From Pseudomonadota bacterium (GTDB lineage Bacteria > Desulfobacterota > Desulfobacteria > Desulfobacterales > RPRI01), in the NCBI GenBank assembly GCA_043825875.1, contig JBDRRF010000074.1:1-45039 (forward strand): DNA of 45,039 nt, in the 5' to 3' direction. The position numbers and the translations under genes were made by a program. The notes beneath the pieces were generated by a model. It was not told the origin of the DNA, made no database searches, and saw only the letters and a program-made list of their open reading frames with translations. Shown here one piece after another: positions 2,388 through 14,053 of the stretch (its first letter is position 1; each line of letters opens with the position of its first letter).

Positions 2388-2419
2388 GGAGTGATAGGGG
2401 ACGGGAGTGATAGGGGACG
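2388..2419. repeat. 16-bp tandem repeat (GGAGTGATAGGGGACG x2)
   Basis: Two exact adjacent copies at 2388-2403 and 2404-2419. Confidence 0.9.
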
Positions 2420-2594
2420 GGTATTGATATATTTATTGTGGACTGATGGGGGCTATTAGGGCCGCCTTGATTAGTGGTTTAGCCTTGGGGACTTGATTGC
2501 TGAGTTGTATTAACGATCCTATGGCACAACAGCCGCGTATACCTATGACAGCCTAAACCGCCTTACACTTCTTGAGAACCGAAAGTCCGGCGGT

Positions 2595-4139
2595 GTGCTG
2601 ATATCGAGTTACTATTATACCCTGGGACCTGCCGGCAACCGTTTATCCGTTGTCGAACAAAGTGGAAGAACAGTCAATTACACCTATGACGCACTCTACC
2701 GCCTGACCCAGGAAGCCATTACAGATCCGGCATTAGGCAATGAGACAATCGGCTATACCTATGATGCATTCGGTAACCGGTTGACCAAAACCGATTCTGA
2801 TGGTACGATCTCCTATACTTATGATGCCAACGATCGTATGCTATCGGAAGCCGGGCCAACATCTATTGCCACCTATACTTATGATGATAACGGCAACACC
2901 CTTAGCAAGACCGAAGGCGTTGGTACTACGCTTTACTCTTATGATTTTGAAAACAGATTGGTCGGTGTTAACACCGCAGCCGGGGCAACCGCCTACGGGT
3001 ATGACTCAGATGGTATCCGGGTAGCAAAATCTACCGGCACCGTCATCACCCGCTATCTGGTAGACAAGAACCGGGATTACGCCCAGGTTCTGGAAGAAAC
3101 CGACAACAGCTCTTTGACAGTCAGTTATGTATATGGAGACGACTTAATCTCCCAAAACAGAGGCAGCAGCTATTACTATCTCTACGATGGGCAGATGTCT
3201 ACAAGACAGCTTGTGGATAACAGTGAGGCTGTTCTCAATGAATATACGTACGATGCCTTTGGTATTATCCTTGGTCAGGCTGGAGTAGTTGCTAACAACT
3301 ACATGTATACGGGGGAGCAGTTTGATCCGAATGCCGGGTTCTACTATCTCAGGGCGAGGTATTATAATCAGGGGGTTGGGAGGTTTGTTACTGTCGATCC
3401 ATGGAAAGGTAATATCCATGAGCCTGTGTCATTGCATAAGTACCTCTATGCGAATGCTGATCCTGTAAACAACGTTGATTATAGTGGGAAATTTACTTTA
3501 GCTACAGTGATGTCCTCAACGGTTATTCGTGGAATTCTAATCAATTTTGCAACTTCAGCGGTGATTGGAGGGATAGACGCAGCATTGCGCGATGAGCCTA
3601 TTCTATCTGCTGCTTTTGAATCTGGTCTTGTTGGTGCCATTCTTGGCCCTATAGGAGTAATAAAATATCTTCGTCCTGTTCTAGTTGTAGGTGGATTAGG
3701 TGTGGGGCTATTAGGTGTTGTTGATGCAGTTGATGAAGGGAATCCTGAACTGGCTGTATTTCGGAGTTTACTCGTGCTAAATGGCGCTCGCTCATTCATT
3801 AAATCACTTGGTCCAGGAGGCAGGCTTGGCAAAAGACCTGTTCGAGCACAGAATAGAGCGATTGCAGATGAGTTGAAAGCTCGTGGTTGGGAAATTAAGA
3901 ACGGCGGGGGTTATGGTCCAGAAGAGTATTTGGCAGGGCCCGGAGGCGCTCGTAAAGGTAGCAATTATGTTGATATCACCGCAACAAAGAATGGTAAAAC
4001 AATTAGGATTCAAACTGTTACGACTACGGATGGTGTTAATCCAACACTTCAAGAGGCAGCGGCCGCTGCAATGATAAGACAAAAAACACCACCGGGTGAC
4101 CATTTGATTTTAATACCTAAACAAAATTGGAGTTTTTGA
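2595..4139 (+). CDS. Orphan RHS cassette (N-terminally truncated) with a different C-terminal toxin
   Basis: RHS-like frame begins about 2520 (YGTTAAYTYDSLNRL) right after an in-frame TAA, no clear RBS. Core ends ...NADPVNNVDYSG, then a Gly-rich hydrophobic linker and a C-terminal domain (EEY...YVDITATK..IRIQTV). Confidence 0.85.
   Translation: MLISSYYYTLGPAGNRLSVVEQSGRTVNYTYDALYRLTQEAITDPALGNETIGYTYDAFGNRLTKTDSDGTISYTYDANDRMLSEAGPTSIATYTYDDNGNTLSKTEGVGTTLYSYDFENRLVGVNTAAGATAYGYDSDGIRVAKSTGTVITRYLVDKNRDYAQVLEETDNSSLTVSYVYGDDLISQNRGSSYYYLYDGQMSTRQLVDNSEAVLNEYTYDAFGIILGQAGVVANNYMYTGEQFDPNAGFYYLRARYYNQGVGRFVTVDPWKGNIHEPVSLHKYLYANADPVNNVDYSGKFTLATVMSSTVIRGILINFATSAVIGGIDAALRDEPILSAAFESGLVGAILGPIGVIKYLRPVLVVGGLGVGLLGVVDAVDEGNPELAVFRSLLVLNGARSFIKSLGPGGRLGKRPVRAQNRAIADELKARGWEIKNGGGYGPEEYLAGPGGARKGSNYVDITATKNGKTIRIQTVTTTDGVNPTLQEAAAAAMIRQKTPPGDHLILIPKQNWSF
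2769..3467 (+). repeat. Second copy of the RHS core, near-identical to about 2-700
   Basis: Colinear at offset 2767 with mostly synonymous differences; similarity collapses after the DPSG/DYSG motif. Confidence 0.95.
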
Positions 4140-4140
4140 A

Positions 4141-4680
4141 ATGTCAAAGCTTTGTAACTTTTTTGCAACAAAAAACGACCTGATTCCAAGAATTAAAGAT
4201 GTGGAAACATCAATTGATGTTCATTATTTTTTATGTGGTCAATTTGATACCAAAAAGGTCATTGAATATGCTTCTTTGCTTAACATTAGAGATATTGGGA
4301 TATCAACTTTAGGAAAGGCAATATTAAGTGATATGTATCTTGTCCTTCCAAAAAGAAAGAATGTTAAACTGCAAAAAGTGTATTTAAAAAAAGGAGGAGT
4401 ACAATATGCGATTGATCAAGGCGCTAATCCTAAATCAATCATTATTTGTATCGGCGGAATATTTAAAAATCAATGTCTTATTTCATCATCAATCGGTACA
4501 ATAGGAACATTAAAGATTTCGAATGATCTCTTCCAAAAATATTCGAAATTGTTAACAAAGGGATTTACTAAAGTAAAAAGTTATTATGTCGGACAAGAGG
4601 CTATGCAAATGCTTGAGGCAGGCTACCGCCTTATAACAATAGGCATAGATTCTCCCAAGGAATACGATTTAGCACTGTAA
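4141..4680 (+). CDS. Putative cognate immunity protein of the second RHS toxin
   Basis: ATG 1 bp after the toxin stop codon; 179 aa; AT-rich. Confidence 0.7.
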   Translation: MSKLCNFFATKNDLIPRIKDVETSIDVHYFLCGQFDTKKVIEYASLLNIRDIGISTLGKAILSDMYLVLPKRKNVKLQKVYLKKGGVQYAIDQGANPKSIIICIGGIFKNQCLISSSIGTIGTLKISNDLFQKYSKLLTKGFTKVKSYYVGQEAMQMLEAGYRLITIGIDSPKEYDLAL

Positions 4681-4926
4681 TTTTTTAGGGGGGCCAAGAA
4701 AGTAACAGTTTAGTCCCCGTTTTTTACACGATTATCGAGACATCAGCTTGAATTGTTAAACAGGGGGTATTGGGGGACATTCTATACTCCCTATGTCAAG
4801 CGAAAACGTGTAAAATATAATTCAAATATAATCAGTTATTTATATTCTTAGCTAAATTGAGAAAACAGTTCTATCGTTGCACTTCCGGTAATGTGCATTT
4901 TACTTCCGGCGGTTCTCTCATGCGGC

Positions 4927-5110
4927 GAATTCCTTATCTAATCGTTACGTTTATCCGGCATCCCAGCTATTAGCTGACCACCACATCATTCCTTATCCAG
5001 ATTAAAGAATTCAGAGAGAAGCCCTTTATTGTCACTCCCGGAGTTGTTTCACTCCAACGTACTAAAACGGGCTTTCTCGCCGAAAATGCTCAAAGTAGTA
5101 TTTGCTTTGA
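4927..5110 (-). ncRNA. Candidate bridge/seek RNA of the IS110 remnant
   Basis: 5' hairpin (5090-5110) then two stems each with a large internal loop and a closing hairpin: 5014-5024/5069-5078 with inner 5040-5044/5051-5055, and 4927-4939/4999-5012 with inner 4964-4968/4972-4976. Confidence 0.5.
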
Positions 5111-5137
5111 TGTAATTAAATTTTAAGCTGTTTGATG

Positions 5138-5368
5138 CTAATCAAAATCCGTAGTTAAACGGCTTGCATCAAACGGTTCATTCTTTTTAAGCATAGCCCA
5201 TGCAATCACTAATAACTTTGCAGCCAATTTTACCCGCATTTTTGTTCGGATACCCCGTTCCTTTTGACGGCCTTCCAACATGTTATAAAAAAGTTGCCGA
5301 AAATTATCATTGACATTGGAAGCAATCAATCCGGCTTGGTATAGTCCGTATCGCAGATCGGAATTCCC
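5138..5368 (-). pseudogene. IS110-family transposase, C-terminal fragment
   Basis: Minus frame reads GNSDLRYGLYQAGLIAS...VKLAAKLLVIAWAMLKKNEPFD, typical of IS110 C-termini; the N-terminal DEDD domain is absent. Confidence 0.8.
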
Positions 5369-5370
5369 CG

Positions 5371-5615
5371 GTCAATGCCTATGATGCCGAAGGCAACCGC
5401 ATCTCCACCACTGACCAGGCCGGAAAAACAACAACATTAGAGTATGATGCTGTCAATCGTCTGGTGCGCACGATCTATGCAGACAGCAGCGCAACTCAAA
5501 TGGAATACAATAGTGCCGGTCAGCTCAAGGTTTCAGTAGATGCCCTGGGCAACCGTACAACGTTCGCCTATGACGCAGCCGGTCGCAGACTTTCGGTTAC
5601 CGATGCTTTGGGCCG
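5371..5615 (+). pseudogene. Internal RHS/YD-repeat fragment (not in the ORF track)
   Basis: Manual translation: VNAYDAEGNRISTTDQAGKTTTLEYDAVNRLVRTIYADSSATQMEYNSAGQLKVSVDALGNRTTFAYDAAGRRLSVTDALG; no start and no core. Confidence 0.85.
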
Positions 5616-5846
5616 GGGCAACTTGCCTCTGCAATGGGTGTAAGCCGCAGATCAGTAAATGAGCTTTGTACCGGCAAAAGATCTATCACCGTTGACACTG
5701 CATTAATGCTGGCAAAAGTATTCGGCAATACACCAAATTTTGGGCTTAATTTACAGCAACGCAATGATATATGGACAGCATTACACTCACCAAAGCGTAT
5801 GGAAAAAATTGAGAGTGTTAAACCGATTCGTGAAGCGATGGCTTGA
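5616..5846 (+). pseudogene. higA: HigA-family XRE antitoxin, N-terminally truncated
   Basis: GQLASAMGVSRRSVNELCTGKRSITVDTALMLAKVFGNTPNFGLNLQ matches the HigA HTH; the first helix and any higB are missing. Confidence 0.75.
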
Positions 5847-6053
5847 GTTTGATAATTATATGACAGGCCAACCGTAGTATATAACGTCCTTGACAAACTG
5901 GACTTATTAATCTTTTATTTTTCTACGTATCAATGTTTTTGCAACAGCATATCAGAAGCATCCAGCCTTGCTCGCCTCGGCATATTTATTATCCTTTAAT
6001 AATTTATAGAACGCTCGCAATATGTCCAATTAGTCAAGGACCCAAACCTTCCC

Positions 6054-6097
6054 CCAACGCAGAGATCGGCCAAAATGGGGCGTTTTGAAACTGGCTC
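6054..6097 (-). mobile_element. Partial copy (one end) of the MITE at 30621-30762
   Basis: Reverse complement matches 30621-30664 at 42/44 nt. Confidence 0.8.
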
Positions 6098-8081
6098 AAG
6101 CCTTTATCAATTGTTCATTGCAACGGCCAGATGATGTCATGAGACAAAAAGCATTTCTATCCTTTTCGCTTCCGATAATTGCCATAAGATCATTAGGCTT
6201 TAAAATAAAGTCAACACCAGGATTTGGCTTTAGCTGCCCATCCCTGAGAACACCTACCAACGAAGCACCTGATTTTTTGCGAATTTCACTCTCACCTATC
6301 GATTTATAGGCAATCGGGCTTTCCGGAACTAAACTCACCCATTGCAAATCAAATTGTTGTTCAGCGCCTCGGAGTTGGGATAGTACCCGATAATCGTTAT
6401 CTTTGTTATACAAATGTGCATAAAGTTCCTGTCGAATGGTATCGGTATGTCGTTGGACTTCGGTAACCGGAACCCGGAGGCGAAGAAGGGATTGACGGGT
6501 CATTTCAAGGCTTGCTTCGAACTCTGGGAATACAACCTCGGAAACACCCAAGTCCTTCAATAAATCGAAAGAATCCTGGCTTGATGTTCTCGCTACTATT
6601 TCAAGTTTGTTATTCAAACGCTTTGCCCGCGCTACTACCAATCTTGTTGAAAAAATTGAGGGAACTGTCAAAATCAGAAGTGAAGCATCTTTTATTCTGG
6701 CAGCATCAAGAACGGTTTCCTGGCTGGCATCGCCATAAACGACCGCCATGTCGGCATTCTTGGCTTGTTCGAACCGCAGGTGATCAAGCTCAATGATTAC
6801 AAATTGTATGTCTAAACGCTTCATGACCTGCGCTATTTGAAAGCCTACACGCCCGCCGCCGGCTATAACTACATGGTTGCCAAAGCCAGTATTGGGTATG
6901 TTAGATGACTCAAGCGCTTCATGCCGAAACCAGCGCTTCTTTAATGCGTATATCCGTGTAGTCTGGCCCGAAATGAGTGGTGTTAGTACCATAGTCAGGA
7001 TTGCGGAGGTCAATACCAAAGAGTAAAGATCGCTTCCAATAGAGTTCGTTGACAATCCCACATTTGCCAGAACAAAGGAGAACTCACCAATTTGAAACAG
7101 GCCCAGTCCAACAGCCAGGGGTATTACATATTTATATTTGAATATTCGAGCTATGAAAGCAAAGATAAATCCTTTGCAAATTCCTACGGCCAGCACTAAT
7201 AAAAGAACCTGCCAGATATGATCAAAAAGAAATATTGGATCTAAAAGCATTCCAACCGATGTAAAAAACAACAATCCAAAAAGATCGCGAAGCGGAATAA
7301 TATCACTTAGGGCTTGGTGGCCGTAGTCCGACTCGCTTAAAACCATACCAGCAACAAAAGCACCAAAGGCAAAAGAAAGCCCCACCATATGCGTAAAATA
7401 ACCCACGCCCAACCCAATGGCGGTGGTTGCGAGTAAAAAAAGTTCTCTTGAACCTAACCTGGCGATATGTGTCATTAGGTATGGCAACAACTTTGTGCCA
7501 AGCAATATCATCCCTGCAATGAAAGCTGCTGCTTTAATTACTGCTAAACCTATGGCAGACAATCCAACCGCAGGATTGTTCAGCTGAGGAAGTATTATCA
7601 TCATCGGAATCACAGCCAAATCCTGTACTATTAGCATCCCAATCATCACTTTGCTGGAAAGGGTCCCCAGCCAGCCTTGGTTCATCAGTGTTTTGAGAAG
7701 CACCATGGTACTCGAAAGAGAGATAAGGGCACCAAGCCAGAGAGACGGCTTCCAATCCCAGCCCATCAAGTGCCCGATACCAAAACCGAGACCTACTGTA
7801 AGGATAATTTGGATCGGGGTTCCTATAAGAGCCACTTTTTTAACTGGCTTTAGATCCTTAAGAGAAAACTCCAGCCCGAGTGCGAAAAGAAGAAGTGCAA
7901 TGCCGATCTCGGCAAGCAATTTAATTTCGGGAATATTTGATATCAGCCCTCCTGTATGTGGTCCTAAAATAATGCCTGCAACGATATAGCCTAAAATTAA
8001 TGGTTGCTTAAGTCGTTGCATTACCAGGCCACATAAAAATGCAGCAACAATAATAAGGATGATATCAGTAGCAATGCCCAT
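6096..8081 (-). CDS. CPA2-family cation:proton antiporter (KefC-like) with TrkA_N and TrkA_C domains
   Basis: Multi-TM N-terminus ([29 protein letters not shown]); cytoplasmic GGGRVG and YGDA motifs; C-terminal TrkA_C. Confidence 0.9.
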
Positions 8082-8359
8082 TAATTTGATCCTATCAATA
8101 TTTGAAGTTGATTTACGAGAGTTTGCTTAGACTATCTTATCGGTATTTAGTAATTAATACCAGCAAATGGTGTTTTCATGCCTTATATAATCTCATGCTC
8201 GGCAAGAAAAATCAACCGGTTCTGATAGTTATTGGTTTTATAAAACTCGAAAGGAATTGAAAAGAATGCTGGGGGAAGTATTTTTACCTAAAAGGTGCAA
8301 GAGGCAAAAACAGAAACCACTTGTTTGGGCTAAAGTAAATCAAACATCCTGCCCCATAG

Positions 8360-8396
8360 ATATTTTGTCCGGGCGCAATACACCCGGACAAAATAT
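8360..8396 (-). terminator. Inverted repeat, probable terminator of the hcr-like operon
   Basis: Perfect 14-bp arms ATATTTTGTCCGGG/CCCGGACAAAATAT 15 bp past the stop codon. Confidence 0.7.
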
Positions 8397-8411
8397 TATT
8401 ACTATCTGATT

Positions 8412-9404
8412 CTATTTTGCGTTATTACATGCCTGTTTGATCGATCTTTTCACAAGCACTCTTACCAGTTTGCGCTTGTACCATGCTGATATATTAAAAT
8501 GAGGCATGGGACGGACTTTTTCATAGGCTGCATCGGCAGCTTTTTCTATAAGTTCGTCTGTAACAGTGTTGCCTGCAAGAACTTTTTCAGCTTCCATAAG
8601 CCTTAACGGCCCTGATCCTACAGCAGTTACAGCGATTCTTGCGTTTTTGCACTTACCACCTGAAACAGTGATACATGCAGCAACTCCTGCAACAGGATAA
8701 TCTATTGCTGCACGTTGTGCCATCTTCAGGTAGGCGCTTCCTGTACCTTTGGGAGGTGTAGGTACAAAGATATCTTTTACAAAATCCGTTGGCTTAAGAA
8801 TGTTTACTTTCTTACTTTTGCCGGTATAAAAATCTTCGATTTTTATAATCTTCTCTTTGCCGGTACTGCCTACTATTGTTACTTTTGCGTCCAAAACAAT
8901 TAAAGCAGGGGGGGTGTCTGCCTGAAAAAGGGCAAGACATTCTTTGGAGCCTTTTGCGACAAAGCATCTGTCGCCTTCAAGCTTGAAGCATAAATGAGGC
9001 CGGCCTTTACGCCATTCATGCGACTGATTATAATACATGCACATAGATTCAATGCTGATATTTCCGCCTATTGTGCCCATGTTTCTTAACTGGGGGCTTG
9101 CCACTCTTCCGGCTGCCTGGGCAAGAGCCGTAAACTTTTCTTTCACAGGCTTTGATTTTGAAATATCATCAAGAGTAACAAGAGAGCCTAATATAAGTCC
9201 TTTTTTCTCGCCAAAATCTATTCTTTTCAGATCCTCAATTTTTGCTACATTTATAACAAATTTAGGGGTTACGATTCTTTGTTTCATCTTCGGCAAAATA
9301 TCGGTTCCCCCGGCAACTATGATGGCCTCTTTATTTTTTTTAAGAAGAGAGGTTATATCTTTAACATTTTTTGCTTCAAGGTATTCAAATTTAGGTAGCC
9401 TCAT
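8412..9404 (-). CDS. hcrB: Xanthine dehydrogenase-family FAD subunit, 4-hydroxybenzoyl-CoA reductase beta-like
   Basis: AGGTD and RNMGTIGGN FAD motifs plus a four-Cys insertion (CMYYNQSHEWR..CFK..GDRC..EC) like the HcrB [4Fe-4S] loop. Confidence 0.75.
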   Translation of the reverse strand: MRLPKFEYLEAKNVKDITSLLKKNKEAIIVAGGTDILPKMKQRIVTPKFVINVAKIEDLKRIDFGEKKGLILGSLVTLDDISKSKPVKEKFTALAQAAGRVASPQLRNMGTIGGNISIESMCMYYNQSHEWRKGRPHLCFKLEGDRCFVAKGSKECLALFQADTPPALIVLDAKVTIVGSTGKEKIIKIEDFYTGKSKKVNILKPTDFVKDIFVPTPPKGTGSAYLKMAQRAAIDYPVAGVAACITVSGGKCKNARIAVTAVGSGPLRLMEAEKVLAGNTVTDELIEKAADAAYEKVRPMPHFNISAWYKRKLVRVLVKRSIKQACNNAK

Positions 9405-11725
9405 TATTCTTTACCTCCTTTCTTTTCAAGGGCCCTTAAAATTCGTTCCGGGGTAATGGGAAGTTCTTTTATTCTGGCACCGGTAGCATAATATATTGCA
9501 TTAGCTATAGCGGGAATTGTGGGGATATTTGCACCTTCACTTGCTTCCTTGGCTCCGAATGGTCCTTCCGTATCCATAGATTCCACAATGATGGATTGCA
9601 CATCAGGCATATCTTCTGCTGTCGGGATCTTGTAATCCAAAAATGAATTAGTCATAGACCATCCCTTTTCCGTCCTATAGTCTTCACACGTTGCCTGACC
9701 AAAGGTCATGGAAACACAGCCTTCAATTTGTCCTTCAACCGCCATTCGATTTATGGCAAAACCGCAGTCATGAGCAGCAGCAATTTTTGGTACTTTCACA
9801 ACACCTGTTTCTTCATCCACTTCCACTTCTGCAGCATGGCAACCAAAACTCCAGGTACAAGCCAAACTGACTTTGCCTTCCGCAAATCCGCTTACATCTC
9901 CTGTATCAACAGGCGGGTTATAATAGCCTACAGTAGATAGAGGTATTCTTTTTACTTTTAGACGAGTCTGAACAGCTTGTTTTATAGTTAAACCTTTTTC
10001 CGGGTTACCCTTGATATATATCCTTCCGTCTCTTGCCTCAAGATCCTCTTTGTTTGCTTCAAGCGCTTCTGCTGCGGTTTCTATAAGTTCTTCCTTGATT
10101 TTGTTTGCAGCCATTTTGGCGGCGTTTCCGGCACACACTATAAGCCTGCTGCCGTAAGTCCCAAGATCCATAGGTGTTGTTGCCGTATCTGCGGCAATGA
10201 CTTTAATCGGATCAATACTGGCCAGTCCGATTTCTTCTGCTGCAATCATAGCCAGAGCCGTTTCTGAACCCTGGCCTAAGTCGGTTGAACCGCTGTAAAG
10301 CAGAAAAGAGCCGTCTTCTTCAGCAGTCATGTTCACACCTGAATGTGAAGGAGGGTTGGTAAAGAAATAAGAGAATCCGGGTCCTGATGCAAAGAAGTTG
10401 GAAGCAAGCCCCACACCCCTTCCTCTGGGAAGCTTTTTCCAATTTTCTTTCCAGCCGATACCTTTGGAAGCCGTGTCCAAAGATTCAACATGGCCGCAGC
10501 TTCTTATTTTAAATTTATTAACGGTTGTATCTCCGGCTTTAAGGGCATTAATCTTTCGTATTTCTATGGGATCCACATTAAGTTTTTCCGCTATTATATC
10601 CATCATTGTTTCTATAACGAAACGGGGCTGAATTCCGCCATGGCCTCTTTGTGCTCCGCAGTAAGGCTTGTTTGTATATATCCTTCGTGCGTCACACTTG
10701 AAATTATTCAGTCTGTAAGGCCCGTGTTGAAAGACTGCCATAGCAAAAATGGATATCATGGAAACACCCTGATAAGCTCCTCCATCGCAAAGGATCTTGG
10801 AGTCAAAGCCCATTATGCGGCCATCTTTTTTAACTCCTATTTTTTGTTCTATCATAGCTGCATGGCGTCTTGTACAAGTAGAAATATCTTCTTCTCTGGT
10901 ATAAGAAATCGTTACAGGCTTGCCGGTAATTTTGGAAAGCAGGGCTGATACCGGAAAAAGACTATGAACATCGCCCTTTCCTCCGAATCCTCCACCAACA
11001 TGGGGTTTTATTATCCTGACCTTGTTTACCGGTATTCCTATAGTTTCCGCAATGCATACCTTGTCATAAAACGGTGTTTGAGTACTAGGCCATATTGTTA
11101 CATCTCCCGAGGCATAATATTCGGCGGTAACTGCATGCGGTTCTATATAGGAGTGATATGTTTGCTGGGTTTCATACTTGTCTTCCAGTATAAAATCAGA
11201 TTCTGCAAAAGCCTTATCTACATCTCCGTGATGAAATGCTGTCATTGTTGAGATATTTCCGGGAAAATATTCATGAATCTGTATAGCATCCGGTTTCATT
11301 GCTTCATAGATATCAAAAAGAGCCGGAAGCTCTTCGTAGTCAACTTTTATTAGCTCCAGTGCTTCCATTGCCGTATCTTCGTCTACCGCAGCAACAGCAG
11401 CTACCTCATCACCGATAAAACGCACCTTTTGCTTAGCAAGAGAAAACTTGTCTCTGATAATCTCGGGCAAAGGTTCAACTCTCATAATACCATGTGGAAC
11501 ATCGGTTATATCTTTTCCTGTAACAACTGCCCTGACTCCCTTAAGCTTGAGCGCCTTTGATGTATCTATATTAAGAATTTTGGCATGGGGTAAAGGACTC
11601 CTTAAGATTTTTCCGATAAGCATTCCGGGAAGAATAAAGTCACCGGCAAATTTAGCAGAGCCGGTAGCCTTAATTGCGCTATCTGTTCTGACTTGTCTTT
11701 TTCCTATTATCGAGTATTTTTCCAT
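9404..11725 (-). CDS. hcrA: Xanthine dehydrogenase-family molybdopterin subunit, 4-hydroxybenzoyl-CoA reductase alpha-like
   Basis: GGGFGGK, QRGHG, DLGQG, EGQIEG and GPFGAKEASEG motifs; C-A-B gene order. Confidence 0.75.
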   Translation of the reverse strand: MEKYSIIGKRQVRTDSAIKATGSAKFAGDFILPGMLIGKILRSPLPHAKILNIDTSKALKLKGVRAVVTGKDITDVPHGIMRVEPLPEIIRDKFSLAKQKVRFIGDEVAAVAAVDEDTAMEALELIKVDYEELPALFDIYEAMKPDAIQIHEYFPGNISTMTAFHHGDVDKAFAESDFILEDKYETQQTYHSYIEPHAVTAEYYASGDVTIWPSTQTPFYDKVCIAETIGIPVNKVRIIKPHVGGGFGGKGDVHSLFPVSALLSKITGKPVTISYTREEDISTCTRRHAAMIEQKIGVKKDGRIMGFDSKILCDGGAYQGVSMISIFAMAVFQHGPYRLNNFKCDARRIYTNKPYCGAQRGHGGIQPRFVIETMMDIIAEKLNVDPIEIRKINALKAGDTTVNKFKIRSCGHVESLDTASKGIGWKENWKKLPRGRGVGLASNFFASGPGFSYFFTNPPSHSGVNMTAEEDGSFLLYSGSTDLGQGSETALAMIAAEEIGLASIDPIKVIAADTATTPMDLGTYGSRLIVCAGNAAKMAANKIKEELIETAAEALEANKEDLEARDGRIYIKGNPEKGLTIKQAVQTRLKVKRIPLSTVGYYNPPVDTGDVSGFAEGKVSLACTWSFGCHAAEVEVDEETGVVKVPKIAAAHDCGFAINRMAVEGQIEGCVSMTFGQATCEDYRTEKGWSMTNSFLDYKIPTAEDMPDVQSIIVESMDTEGPFGAKEASEGANIPTIPAIANAIYYATGARIKELPITPERILRALEKKGGKE

Positions 11726-11740
11726 TTTGCTCTCCTTTAT

Positions 11741-12199
11741 TTACTTTGCTGTAACCTCAATGGCTTCTATAATCTTGGTGTATCCGGTGCAACGGCATAA
11801 ATTACCTGAAATACCCCTTTTTATTTCAGCTCTGGTGGGCTTCGGGTTTTCATCAAGCATTGCCTTGGCGGACAATATCATTCCAGGGGTACAGTAACCA
11901 CATTGGATAGCACCGTAATCCACAAAATTTTGCTGCAATGGATTAAGTTTGCCTTCCTTTGCTAATCCTTCGATAGTAGTGATTTCTTTTCCGTGAGCAG
12001 CAGCAGCAAGAGTAAGACAGGCAAGAACCGACTTTCCGTCCATAATAACCGTGCAGGCTCCGCAGGCTCCCAGATCGCAGCCTTCTTTTGATCCGGTCAG
12101 ACCGAGATTTTCCCTTAAAACCTCAAGTAAAGTTCTGTGAGGATCAACAGCTGTCTCATAAGATTCCCCATTTACCTTTAACTCAATAACTTGTTTCAT
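11741..12199 (-). CDS. hcrC: 2x[2Fe-2S] subunit, 4-hydroxybenzoyl-CoA reductase gamma-like
   Basis: GCDLGACGAC..C and QCGYC...NLCRCTGY. Confidence 0.75.
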   Translation of the reverse strand: MKQVIELKVNGESYETAVDPHRTLLEVLRENLGLTGSKEGCDLGACGACTVIMDGKSVLACLTLAAAAHGKEITTIEGLAKEGKLNPLQQNFVDYGAIQCGYCTPGMILSAKAMLDENPKPTRAEIKRGISGNLCRCTGYTKIIEAIEVTAK

Positions 12200-12298
12200 T
12201 ACAGGTCTCCTTTTTTATTTTAAAGAATATCTAATAGATATAATTCAATTTATTATTATTGCTTTATTAAGAACAATCGTTTTGCAATGTAATTCTGT

Positions 12299-12314
12299 TG
12301 CTTAAATCGTGCCA
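12299..12314 (-). promoter_or_regulatory. sigma54 (-24/-12) promoter of the hcr-like operon
   Basis: Minus strand TGGCACGATTTAAGCA (GG-N10-GC), 100 bp upstream of hcrC, next to a sigma54 activator gene. Confidence 0.75.
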
Positions 12315-12388
12315 ATATTTTTATATATATAATATCAATTAATTAAGTCCATAATAATAGAATAATTCGATAGAATAAAAAGTAATTA

Positions 12389-12430
12389 ATCTGTATTTAG
12401 AAATTTAGTTTCTATATTTAGAAATTTAGT
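12389..12430. promoter_or_regulatory. Tandem putative activator (UAS) sites
   Basis: TATTTAGAAATTTAGT repeated with a 21-bp period (12394-12409, 12415-12430), overlapping the palindrome TTCTA-N4-TAGAA. Confidence 0.55.
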
Positions 12431-12505
12431 GTACGTTATTCAAAATACAGTAGTTTTATATAGAAAACTTTTTAAAACATTAAACACAGAACAAGCGAGC
12501 ATGAA

Positions 12506-14053
12506 ATGAACATAAACGAAAAAGACTTTTTTCATCAGGTTACTATTCGCATATGCGGAAGTCTTGAAATAGATCGAGCTTTAATGCATTCTTTTCAGTA
12601 TCTAAAAGATTTTATCCCCCTGGATGAAATGTGGCTGGCTTTACTTGATAAAGACGTAGGAGGGTTGAGAGCCATAGCCATTGCTGATCATTCAGGTGTA
12701 AAAAAAATGGATGCCATCATTCCAATCCCCAAGGTTGTCAGAAACAGGCTTGACAAACAGGATTTCACACCCAAAAAAGTTATTAAAATTAATAAGATGG
12801 AACTAATTAATTTATCAAACTTTTTAGGTTATCCTGATTCATCACTTATGATTTTACCTTTATTAACAGATGGAGTCAAGACGGGATCTTTGGTTATGAG
12901 AGCGGCGGGAAAAGAAATATATTCAGATTCGCATGCTGAACTGCTTACTTTGCTTCATGACCCTTTTGCAGTTGCATTATCCAATGCGCTAAGACATGAA
13001 GATGTTCTCAAATTAAAGGATATGCTGGCTGATGAAAACCAATATCTTATCAGTGAACTGCGGCAATTATCCGGCGAAGAAATTGTTGGAGCGGAATCAG
13101 GTCTGAAAAATGTCATGGATATGGTTCATCAGGTCGCTCCAAGAGATAACCCTGTACTGCTTTTGGGGGAAACCGGTGTAGGAAAGGAAGTTATAGCCAA
13201 TGCCATCCATTATTCTTCACCCCGAAAAGGCGGCCCGTTTATAAAAGTTAATAGTGGTGCTATTCCTGAAGGACTTATCGACAGTGAACTTTTCGGGCAT
13301 GAAAAAGGTGCATTTACAGGCGCTATTAATCAAAAACGGGGACGGTTTGAACGTGCACACGGAGGGACAATCTTTTTAGATGAGATAGGCGATTTGCCTA
13401 TTCAGGCACAAAGCAGATTGTTACGGGTTATTCAGCAAAAAGAGCTGGAACGTGTAGGAGGAGCTAAAACTATCCAGGTTGATACCCGCATTATAGCTGC
13501 TACTCACCGTAACCTGGAACACATGGTTGCAAAGAATAGATTCAGGGAAGATTTATGGTATAGACTGAGCATATTTCCGATTATAATTCCCCCTTTAAGG
13601 CAGCGAAAATCCGATATTCCCGAGCTTGTTGAACATTTCCTGAAACGCAAATCAAGAGAATTAAATTTGCGCGGTATTCCCCCAATAGCACCCGGTGCTG
13701 TTGAGCGGCTTATGGATTATCCATGGAAGGGTAATGTGCGGGAACTGGAAAATATGGTGGAAAGGGCACTGATACAATATAGCGGCGGTTTACTGAATTT
13801 CGGCCATTCCATTTTTTCCCAGGTTGAGGAGACACAAGAGCTTTCCAGCTCAGATGGCAGAATGCTCACGCTAAGCGAAATCAATGCCCGTCATATTCAA
13901 AAAGTGCTGGAAGTAACAAAAGGGAAAATTAACGGGCCCGGAGGAACAGCAGATATTCTTGGCATACACCCCAGTACATTAAGATGTAAAATGGACAAGC
14001 TTGGAATTAAATACGGAAAAAACAGCAGGTTCGGGGCTTCAAAAGCCCTATAG
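12506..14053 (+). CDS. sigma54-dependent transcriptional activator, GAF-AAA-HTH (FhlA-like)
   Basis: GETGVGKE, ELFGHEKGAFTGA, FLDEIG, WKGNVREL and a C-terminal HTH; N-terminal GAF-like region. Confidence 0.92.
   Translation: MNINEKDFFHQVTIRICGSLEIDRALMHSFQYLKDFIPLDEMWLALLDKDVGGLRAIAIADHSGVKKMDAIIPIPKVVRNRLDKQDFTPKKVIKINKMELINLSNFLGYPDSSLMILPLLTDGVKTGSLVMRAAGKEIYSDSHAELLTLLHDPFAVALSNALRHEDVLKLKDMLADENQYLISELRQLSGEEIVGAESGLKNVMDMVHQVAPRDNPVLLLGETGVGKEVIANAIHYSSPRKGGPFIKVNSGAIPEGLIDSELFGHEKGAFTGAINQKRGRFERAHGGTIFLDEIGDLPIQAQSRLLRVIQQKELERVGGAKTIQVDTRIIAATHRNLEHMVAKNRFREDLWYRLSIFPIIIPPLRQRKSDIPELVEHFLKRKSRELNLRGIPPIAPGAVERLMDYPWKGNVRELENMVERALIQYSGGLLNFGHSIFSQVEETQELSSSDGRMLTLSEINARHIQKVLEVTKGKINGPGGTADILGIHPSTLRCKMDKLGIKYGKNSRFGASKAL

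Follow-up and report, generated by a model that had tools for sequence, protein, structure and literature searches.

The window, a stretch of 45,039 nucleotides, carries on its minus strand what we consider, at a probability of about 0.85, to be the dead remnant of an apparently undescribed IS110 lineage of Desulfobacterota and Nitrospirota, with a bridge RNA in a long right end. The remnant lies at the site where an Rhs toxin-immunity island ends, in an assembly of 4.77 Mb and 118 contigs (G000). It represents a known kind of system in a variant architecture, which is probably dead here.

The initial annotation had recognized an IS110 remnant on the minus strand, and the recombinase stub at 5138..5371 (minus strand, stop codon at 5138-5140) bears this out. 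It retains the last ~74 codons of a ~428-aa protein, matches model positions 279-343 of NF033542 (E 1.7e-5, under the curated cut-off), and corresponds to residues ~354-427 of the intact 427-aa protein of locus L238 (contig C31 of the same-genus genome G008), with 73% identity over 74 aa. A Pfam scan did not detect the stub. Full-length relatives lie above both IS110 Pfam cut-offs (DEDD_Tnp_IS110, Transposase_20) and that of NF033542 in 3 of 3 cases, and the relative L028 matches PDB entries 8wt6 (E 1.8e-8) and 9t56 (E 1.6e-7), which are IS621 and ISCro4. DEDD and the catalytic SG loop are missing from the stub; RSG sits at 338 and the stub begins past this loop, hence it holds no catalytic residue. 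The search for intact copies proposed in the initial annotation gave a divided result: L238 is intact in G008, whereas tblastn returned two stubs only, and no intact recombinase, in G000. The latter holds about ten right-end fragments besides the window copy, and an intact transposase may be hidden because repeats may be unassembled; contigs C86 and C23 start within the RNA. Named relatives of the stub come mostly from Desulfobacterota and Nitrospirota, and the best relatives in a plasmid search reached only about 30%. The set of relatives was composed of 57 loci, the best 80 of 291 and the best 80 of 572; some elements are present twice, and the relatives are not independent.

Downstream of the stub, where the initial annotation had placed an RNA, lies the bridge RNA core (4906..5083, minus strand). 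A closing helix (5078-5083 with 4906-4912), absent from the initial annotation, holds a target-binding arm and a donor-binding arm, the loops of which are capped by hairpins at 5040..5055 and 4958..4984, respectively (both minus strand). The 5' hairpin at 5091..5109 (minus strand) is called lineage-specific, because the gap between transposase end and closing helix has a median of only about 20 nt in 174 relatives. Thus, the annotated 5' hairpin and two stems with large, capped internal loops are all found in the fold. The fold of the single sequence has an MFE of -73.5 kcal/mol (z -2.80), and 1 of 200 shuffles is as good. RNA regions of the 174 relatives were aligned with the window (matches outside 150-260 nt were dropped), and the fold alignment was made up of the window and 51 of 56 representatives at 85%; four loop pairs were removed from it. 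These 52 sequences yield a consensus fold of a closing helix with two arms. The stems, whose conservation the initial annotation had named as a check, covary: 93.8% of cells are paired versus 84.7% after shuffling (0 of 500 shuffles reach the real value), a score which is favoured because the structure was derived from the same alignment. Two-sided changes occur in 32 of 40 stem pairs, and slid controls are 34-46% paired. One might still read the fold as an ordinary 3' UTR or terminator with loop matches by chance, as no Rfam family matches it (there is no match in the window, and across four loci only intron models match, on L238). However, target, donor and handshake bases covary position by position, and no terminator-like site lies within 4680-6100, which renders this reading exceedingly improbable. 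The structured region downstream of the stub is a real bridge RNA.

All guides of this RNA lie on the minus strand. The left target guide TTTAGTAC with the core GT is found at 5057..5066, and the right target guide GTGAC (GGGAC in the family) with the handshake AA at 5029..5035. The left donor guide TAAGGAAT (4988..4995) fits the right end TATAGAAT at 6 of 8 positions, and the right donor guide GTAAC with the handshake G (4943..4948) is the complement of GT-TA plus a G.T wobble, the G pairing with target position -1. The concept of handshake bases is taken from the IS621 work (PMC11208158). Covariation of loops with target and donor, another check that had been proposed, is evident. With n=73 left by de-duplication at 90%, left target guides fit the left flank at 6.51 versus 4.63 of 10 positions, a z of 12.4 that 0 of 5000 permutations reach, and at 80% the z is 9.5 (n=34); the signal is carried by target positions -7 to -1. 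In 139 of 141 records the variable base of the left-donor guide is identical to the base at right-end position -3. The handshake base after TAAC complements target position -1 in 140 of 140, including 5 records with rare types. When 10,056 pairs were scanned blind, the highest hits included the left-guide diagonal, the donor base and the handshake base, with low-variance noise mixed in. The right target guide reads GGGAC in 170 of 175 records; permutation tests for right target and right donor (z 2.6 and 1.1; 1.2 and 0.5) are weak or null because both are nearly invariant. Right guide and flank have changed together in L100 (GATAC with GT-ATC) and L051 (GCGAC with GT-CGC), and among relatives' right-guide variants with known flank, 2 of 3 fit that flank, while L078 does not. 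Covariation thereby establishes guide positions, core, ends and handshake.

The motifs quoted in the initial annotation are present (TCACTCCC at 5032, ACTCCC at 4786, GGGAGTGA at 2403). A role of GGGAGT(GA) as guide, donor or target was rejected: the real right guide is GGGAC, here GTGAC, and the loop 8-mer at 5032 mixes non-guide bases with this mutated guide. The recurrence of GGGAGT at the element end exists but is coincidental (1 of 9 genome junctions, 0 of 141 relative records). Likewise, the copy of GGGAGTGA at 2403 exists but is not meaningful: it lies on the strand opposite to the RNA copy and has no GT core, and 0.38 such 8-mers per 45 kb are expected by genome frequency.

The right end (4777..4786, minus strand) consists of the left-donor sequence TATAGAAT (4779-4786) and the core GT (4777-4778), adjoined by the right target flank CCCCCAATACCCCC (4763..4776, minus strand), the outer half of a TIRtron-type repeat. 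The GGGGAC flank and the outward TTGACA of the initial annotation were recovered at 4773 and, as a -35 element, at 4794..4799 (minus strand); the element end, placed at 4782, had to be moved 3-5 bases further out to 4777-4779. Ends of relatives were called by motif (left X-GT-TATATA; right TTGACA-N7-9-TATAG[A/G/T]AT-GT-CCC), by which deviant elements are missed. The core GT occurs at both element ends and is the only duplicated target sequence, and the three bases CCC of the right flank are found in 124, 123 and 124 of 126. In joined ends, TTGACA and TATATA are spaced by 17 nt in 101 of 113 complete records, with TATATA in 110 of 113; end consensus and promoter spacing are partly circular here, because the end calls used those motifs. 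The TTGACA in the window would be completed by a left-end TATATA only if the ends were joined in a circle. The median length is 141 nt for the left end and 327 nt for the right end. A promoter scan gave 5 sites versus 3.5 expected, none of which feeds the bridge RNA.

By analogy with IS621, an intact member would excise at GT, and its joined ends would make TTGACA-17-TATATA, transcribing recombinase and RNA. The donor loop would then pair with TATAG[A/G/T]AT-GT-TAT and the target loop with N7C-GT-CCC, and handshake bases would favour strand exchange. We infer from the same analogy that the family works like IS621 with the RNA moved to the right end; expression, protein binding and circles would follow this model. 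A circle joint was not found among the contigs, which is not counted as evidence.

The family target is N7C-GT-CCC, and covariation shows that the family prefers the terminal repeats of Y1 (TIRYT) elements. Using a profile built from five Y1 proteins, Y1 genes were found at 27 of 104 left flanks (5 being the profile seeds), 22 of them within 60 nt and in both orientations, and at 4 of 99 right flanks; the remaining 77 left flanks show none. Among the flank ORFs scanned (26 of 56 listed), 6 of 26 contain Y1_Tnp. Two studies (10.1101/279083; PMC3733652) characterize subclass 2.1, or TIRYT, by a Y1 domain with HTH/Bac_DnaA_C tail and GGGGWSAS repeats on either side. The flank Y1 proteins carry such a tail, fitting this class, and many of the repeats read GGGGACG, fitting six of the eight GGGGWSAS positions (GGGGAC fits, the next base is mostly G). 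In G000, the target motif adjoins Y1 genes on C79, C83 and C17, and a weight matrix detects 10 empty sites of at least 16 bits in the genome versus 1 in one shuffled genome. C-terminal codons of Y1 genes were rejected as the target, as the ORFs stop 20-27 nt earlier. A comparison of 96 rebuilt empty sites with the gathered loci gave 3 weak matches. L238 is inserted in the 5' region of a group II intron, with guide and handshake changed to match. Its uninterrupted homologous site at G000:C109 44368-44450 reads GGGGTGAAA-GT-CCCC, fits the L238 guide and represents an empty site of the kind that the initial annotation had suggested looking for. A description of IS110 elements targeting RAYT/TIRYT was not found in the literature searched, the coverage of which is incomplete.

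The Rhs island itself contains a TIRtron repeat, ATATCAATACCC-GT-CCCC (2389..2440, minus strand), with a 16-bp tandem duplication that includes the 2403-2410 motif mentioned above; the repeat motif also follows the Y1 gene on G000:C17. The GGGGAC motif at 2413 is a TIRtron-type terminal repeat. In the target scan the repeat at 2418 scores 13.4 bits, from the right side only, and it fits the left guide of this copy at 1 of 8 left positions. The proposal that the guide specifies the GGGGAC-type motifs of the island was thus right about the target class and wrong about this copy, whose guide does not match the island motif.

The initial annotation had likened the element to the IS1111 group. The long non-coding region downstream of the gene agrees with this, as in ISEc11, ISPa11 and ISKpn4 (PMC11187229), but other properties do not. 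Subterminal inverted repeats of 7-17 bp (usually 11-13) and a top-strand complement coming first are criteria of IS1111 in PMC11208160 and PMC11187229. Here, the longest perfect subterminal repeat measures 4-6 bp in 109 of 113 records and 7-8 bp in 3, without repeats of 11-13 bp; the Pro position of the GL-P----S(T)G motif is Leu in 169 of 171 full-length records; and the guide order in the RNA is of IS110 type (bottom-strand match first), the reverse of IS1111. IS1111 membership was rejected on these three points, and because these tests failed we regard the family as IS110-type elements with a right-end RNA. According to both papers, the bridge RNA is normally found in the left end of the IS110 group, with exceptions allowed (PMC11208160; PMC11187229), and some non-IS1111 elements have a 3' non-coding region (PMC11187229). 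The family motif is absent from the supplementary data searched of both publications, which covers them in part.

With IS621 and ISCro4 (PMC11208160, PMC11208158), the family shares a DEDD + Tnp recombinase, two simple internal loops with the left guide first, a 2-nt core, handshake bases, a short ATA/TAT-type subterminal repeat, a junction promoter and a repeat as target. Unlike IS621, it has the RNA in the right end, the core GT (CT in IS621), both arms on one closing helix, a protein ~100 aa longer and a TIRtron repeat instead of REP as target. TIRtrons or TIRYT, of TnpA-Y1 subclass 2.1 (PMC3733652; 10.1101/279083), are the host of the target site. Truncated-transposase copies and RNA-bearing non-autonomous modules have been described for ISPpu9/MITEPpu9 (PMC12288879) and expanded IS110 loci (10.64898/2026.08.14.744561), as have cargo and half-site junctions; mobility of the present remnant is only hypothetical. 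The family targets the terminal inverted repeats of another mobile element, and the host of the site is a Y1 element. Terminal inverted repeats of Tn21 are reportedly targeted by IS4321/IS5075, members of the IS1111 group within the IS110 family, which resemble our family in this choice and differ from it in the kind of host.

As for the state of this copy, its guide reads TTTAGTAC-GT-CAC, with T at -6 where 97 of 104 family left flanks have A, and its GTGAC mismatches its own GT-CCC flank. Exact targets for this guide, searched as TAGTACGTCAC or GTACGTCAC, occur at 0 sites in the genome, and the copy has one target loop. The G-to-T change of the guide at 5034 is found at about 31 of 272 depth in run X1, corresponding to ~one copy, and is absent from X2-X4. 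The complete-looking relative L078 also has GTGAC beside a GT-CCC flank, hence the right-guide mismatch may be tolerated. The claim that the guide RNA survived gene decay holds for the fold, which is kept; two near-invariant guide positions have changed, which makes the function of this copy doubtful. Given the loss of the enzyme and two guide mutations, this copy is most likely dead.

The orthologue in G008 differs by one base over 6200-5372, then agrees at ~90% in the RNA and has another flank; the switch between G000 and G008 starts within the stub, at about 5270-5370. We infer that the RNA halves of this copy and of its counterpart in the nearest genome go back to different sister copies, through recombination between remnants, a mis-join being less likely. 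An assembly error across the ~400-bp repeat would explain the join of the stub to the RNA and Rhs flank in another way. In its favour, the same left part continues in G008 into the flank with which G000:C86 begins, the G008 RNA is nearer to C86 (0.949) than to this copy (0.90), and 4857-5167 is bridged by no unitig. On the other hand, run X1 yields exact unitigs for 4200-4857 and 5167-5682 at depths of 30.9 and 31.8, the second of which covers the switch zone with the alleles of the window, and the private guide allele has the same depth. We therefore hold such an error to be rather unlikely.

Some observations on sister copies may be added. Left guides (window 5059-5066; G000:C83, C60; L235-L237) differ between G000 and G008 and agree within each genome, which may reflect gene conversion or assembly consensus. 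A concerted G000/G008 guide difference was not accepted, and assembly consensus may explain the agreement, because run X1 holds the G000 allele at ~one copy. G000:C91 45780-45830 is an internally deleted member in which a left end of ~20 nt is fused to the right flank, and L236 (G008:C65), 1.27 kb long, has kept both ends, while most of its transposase is replaced by foreign DNA.

Two Rhs C-terminal modules lie at 14-1294 and 2595-4139. Orphan modules of this kind and putative immunity genes, one of them a DUF4304 gene (1318-1992), span 14-2310 and 2595-4680, and their tips are unrelated. A short repeat with GGACTAAACTGTTAC at 4695-4759 is also found on G000:C77, C97, C68, C86 and C91. In place of the missing transposase part there is an Rhs/YD-repeat gene fragment, read from the sequence (5372..5620, plus strand), to which the G008 orthologue is identical. 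It is followed by a 5'-truncated HTH antitoxin (5615..5846, plus strand), which we take to be HigA-like; an intact toxin-antitoxin pair with the same 3' flank is located on G000:C79. An internally deleted mini-TIRtron of ~150 bp (5886..6041; 9-bp inverted repeats at 5886-5894 and 6033-6041) contains the Y1-transposase-like start MPRRARLDA at 5983 (minus strand; start motif compared with Y1 proteins). The end of a MITE-like element of ~140 bp, with terminal inverted repeats and hundreds of copies, lies at 6049-6099. Genes at 6096-14053, presumably a KefC-type antiporter, a three-gene xanthine-dehydrogenase-like cluster and a sigma-54 activator, appear ordinary by eye.

The left-type junction TCAAGGAC-GT-TATATA (5878..5893, minus strand) is possibly the cognate left end of the element or a separate scar. 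If cognate, 4777-5885 would be a single non-autonomous cargo unit between cognate junctions, comprising the antitoxin and Rhs fragments, the stub and the RNA. It would be mobile with a recombinase in trans, and circularization would create the promoter from which the RNA is expressed. The junction sits exactly on the mini-TIRtron repeat, 1.1 kb upstream and on the correct strand; the guide of the G008 orthologue fits it at 8 of 8 positions, and on G000:C79 the same right-hand sequence meets a different flank of repeat type at GT. IS110 cargo and half-site recombination are described in 10.64898/2026.08.14.744561. However, only 6 nt resemble a left end, and the junction may be a separate scar, because the TACTAC that follows it is shared by ordinary right flanks and by the opposite end of the toxin-antitoxin pair on C79. 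Other G008 copies share the guide but sit at non-matching sites, family-type flanks with GTTAT occur at chance level genome-wide (16 versus 14.1), and no second site with the 1.1-kb unit was found. A search for further antitoxin-side junctions gave matches in 3 of 17 genus genomes, G013 having another flank, and a single collection-wide match (L249), inside an unrelated gene. On balance, a mobile cargo unit appears unlikely, and we retain the dead remnant as the preferred reading.

A further possibility, which we consider quite improbable, is that right-end scars serve as fixed half-sites. The recombinase would use them to join or swap Rhs toxin-immunity and toxin-antitoxin cassettes that have TIRtron repeats at their borders. 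An Rhs core lies within 3.5 kb on the target side at 5 of 9 right-end junctions in G000, all flanks being different; high-scoring empty targets delimit toxin-antitoxin arrays (C38) and sit at Rhs/YD-repeat loci (C17, C116), and G000 and G008 differ downstream of this junction. However, Rhs islands may just gather TIRtron ends and tolerate insertions, the G000/G008 switch lies within the stub and not at GT, as homologous recombination predicts, and no intact recombinase was found in G000. Right-end junctions face the 3' ends of Rhs modules at window 4680-4777 and on G000:C23, C72, C86 and C96. Toxin-antitoxin or other small cassettes between directly repeated TIRtron-type ends are seen at C38 36.4-38.7 kb and L240 (G011:C58), and the same arrangement at G000:C79 22.5-23.4 kb and C33 380-1150. 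In layout these loci resemble arrays such as this recombinase, or a Y1 transposase, might assemble; the literature searched, with incomplete coverage, gave no description of cassette arrays with Y1 transposases.

Two GGGAC-type motifs ahead of the donor loop are present in 23 of 167 records (duplicates included, two ambiguous), and an extra stand-alone target arm with its own left guide was found right after the transposase stop. Carriers of the extra arm are L222, L228, L129-L131, L124, L125, L111, L152, L022 and L033. The extra arm fits the element's own left flank at 8 of 8 positions in L222 and L228 (two different sequences) and at 6 of 8 in L130, where the main guide fits at 4, 3 and 4, respectively. 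L124, L125, L129, L111, L152, L033 and L026 fit the main guide at 6-7 of 8 positions, and L131 fits neither guide. In the Desulfosarcina variabilis genome, with 9 matches, the 6 left junctions read fit the main guide in 2 cases, the extra guide in 3 and neither in 1; three of the copies read have no RNA at the expected place. It is rather likely that certain members reach a wider range of sites by combining two target-binding loops with a single donor loop. Multiple donor loops are reportedly covered in the supplements of 10.64898/2026.08.14.744561 on expanded IS110 loci, and a description of dual target loops was not found in the literature searched, which is incompletely covered. Taking TIRtron repeats, docking half-site scars and two-loop members together, the lineage might be thought of as the recombinase of an RNA-guided, integron-like cassette system, an idea that we regard as quite improbable.

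The family is large and easily aligned, and all four guides as well as the handshake base are defined by natural variation. Its TIRtron repeats are a newly named target class, and in L238 retargeting to a group II intron has occurred naturally. An IS110-type RNA in an IS1111-type position is informative on the way in which the RNA changed ends. Should the second target loop of some relatives work, their bridge RNAs would be natural examples with two targets, which would be directly useful to recombinase engineering.
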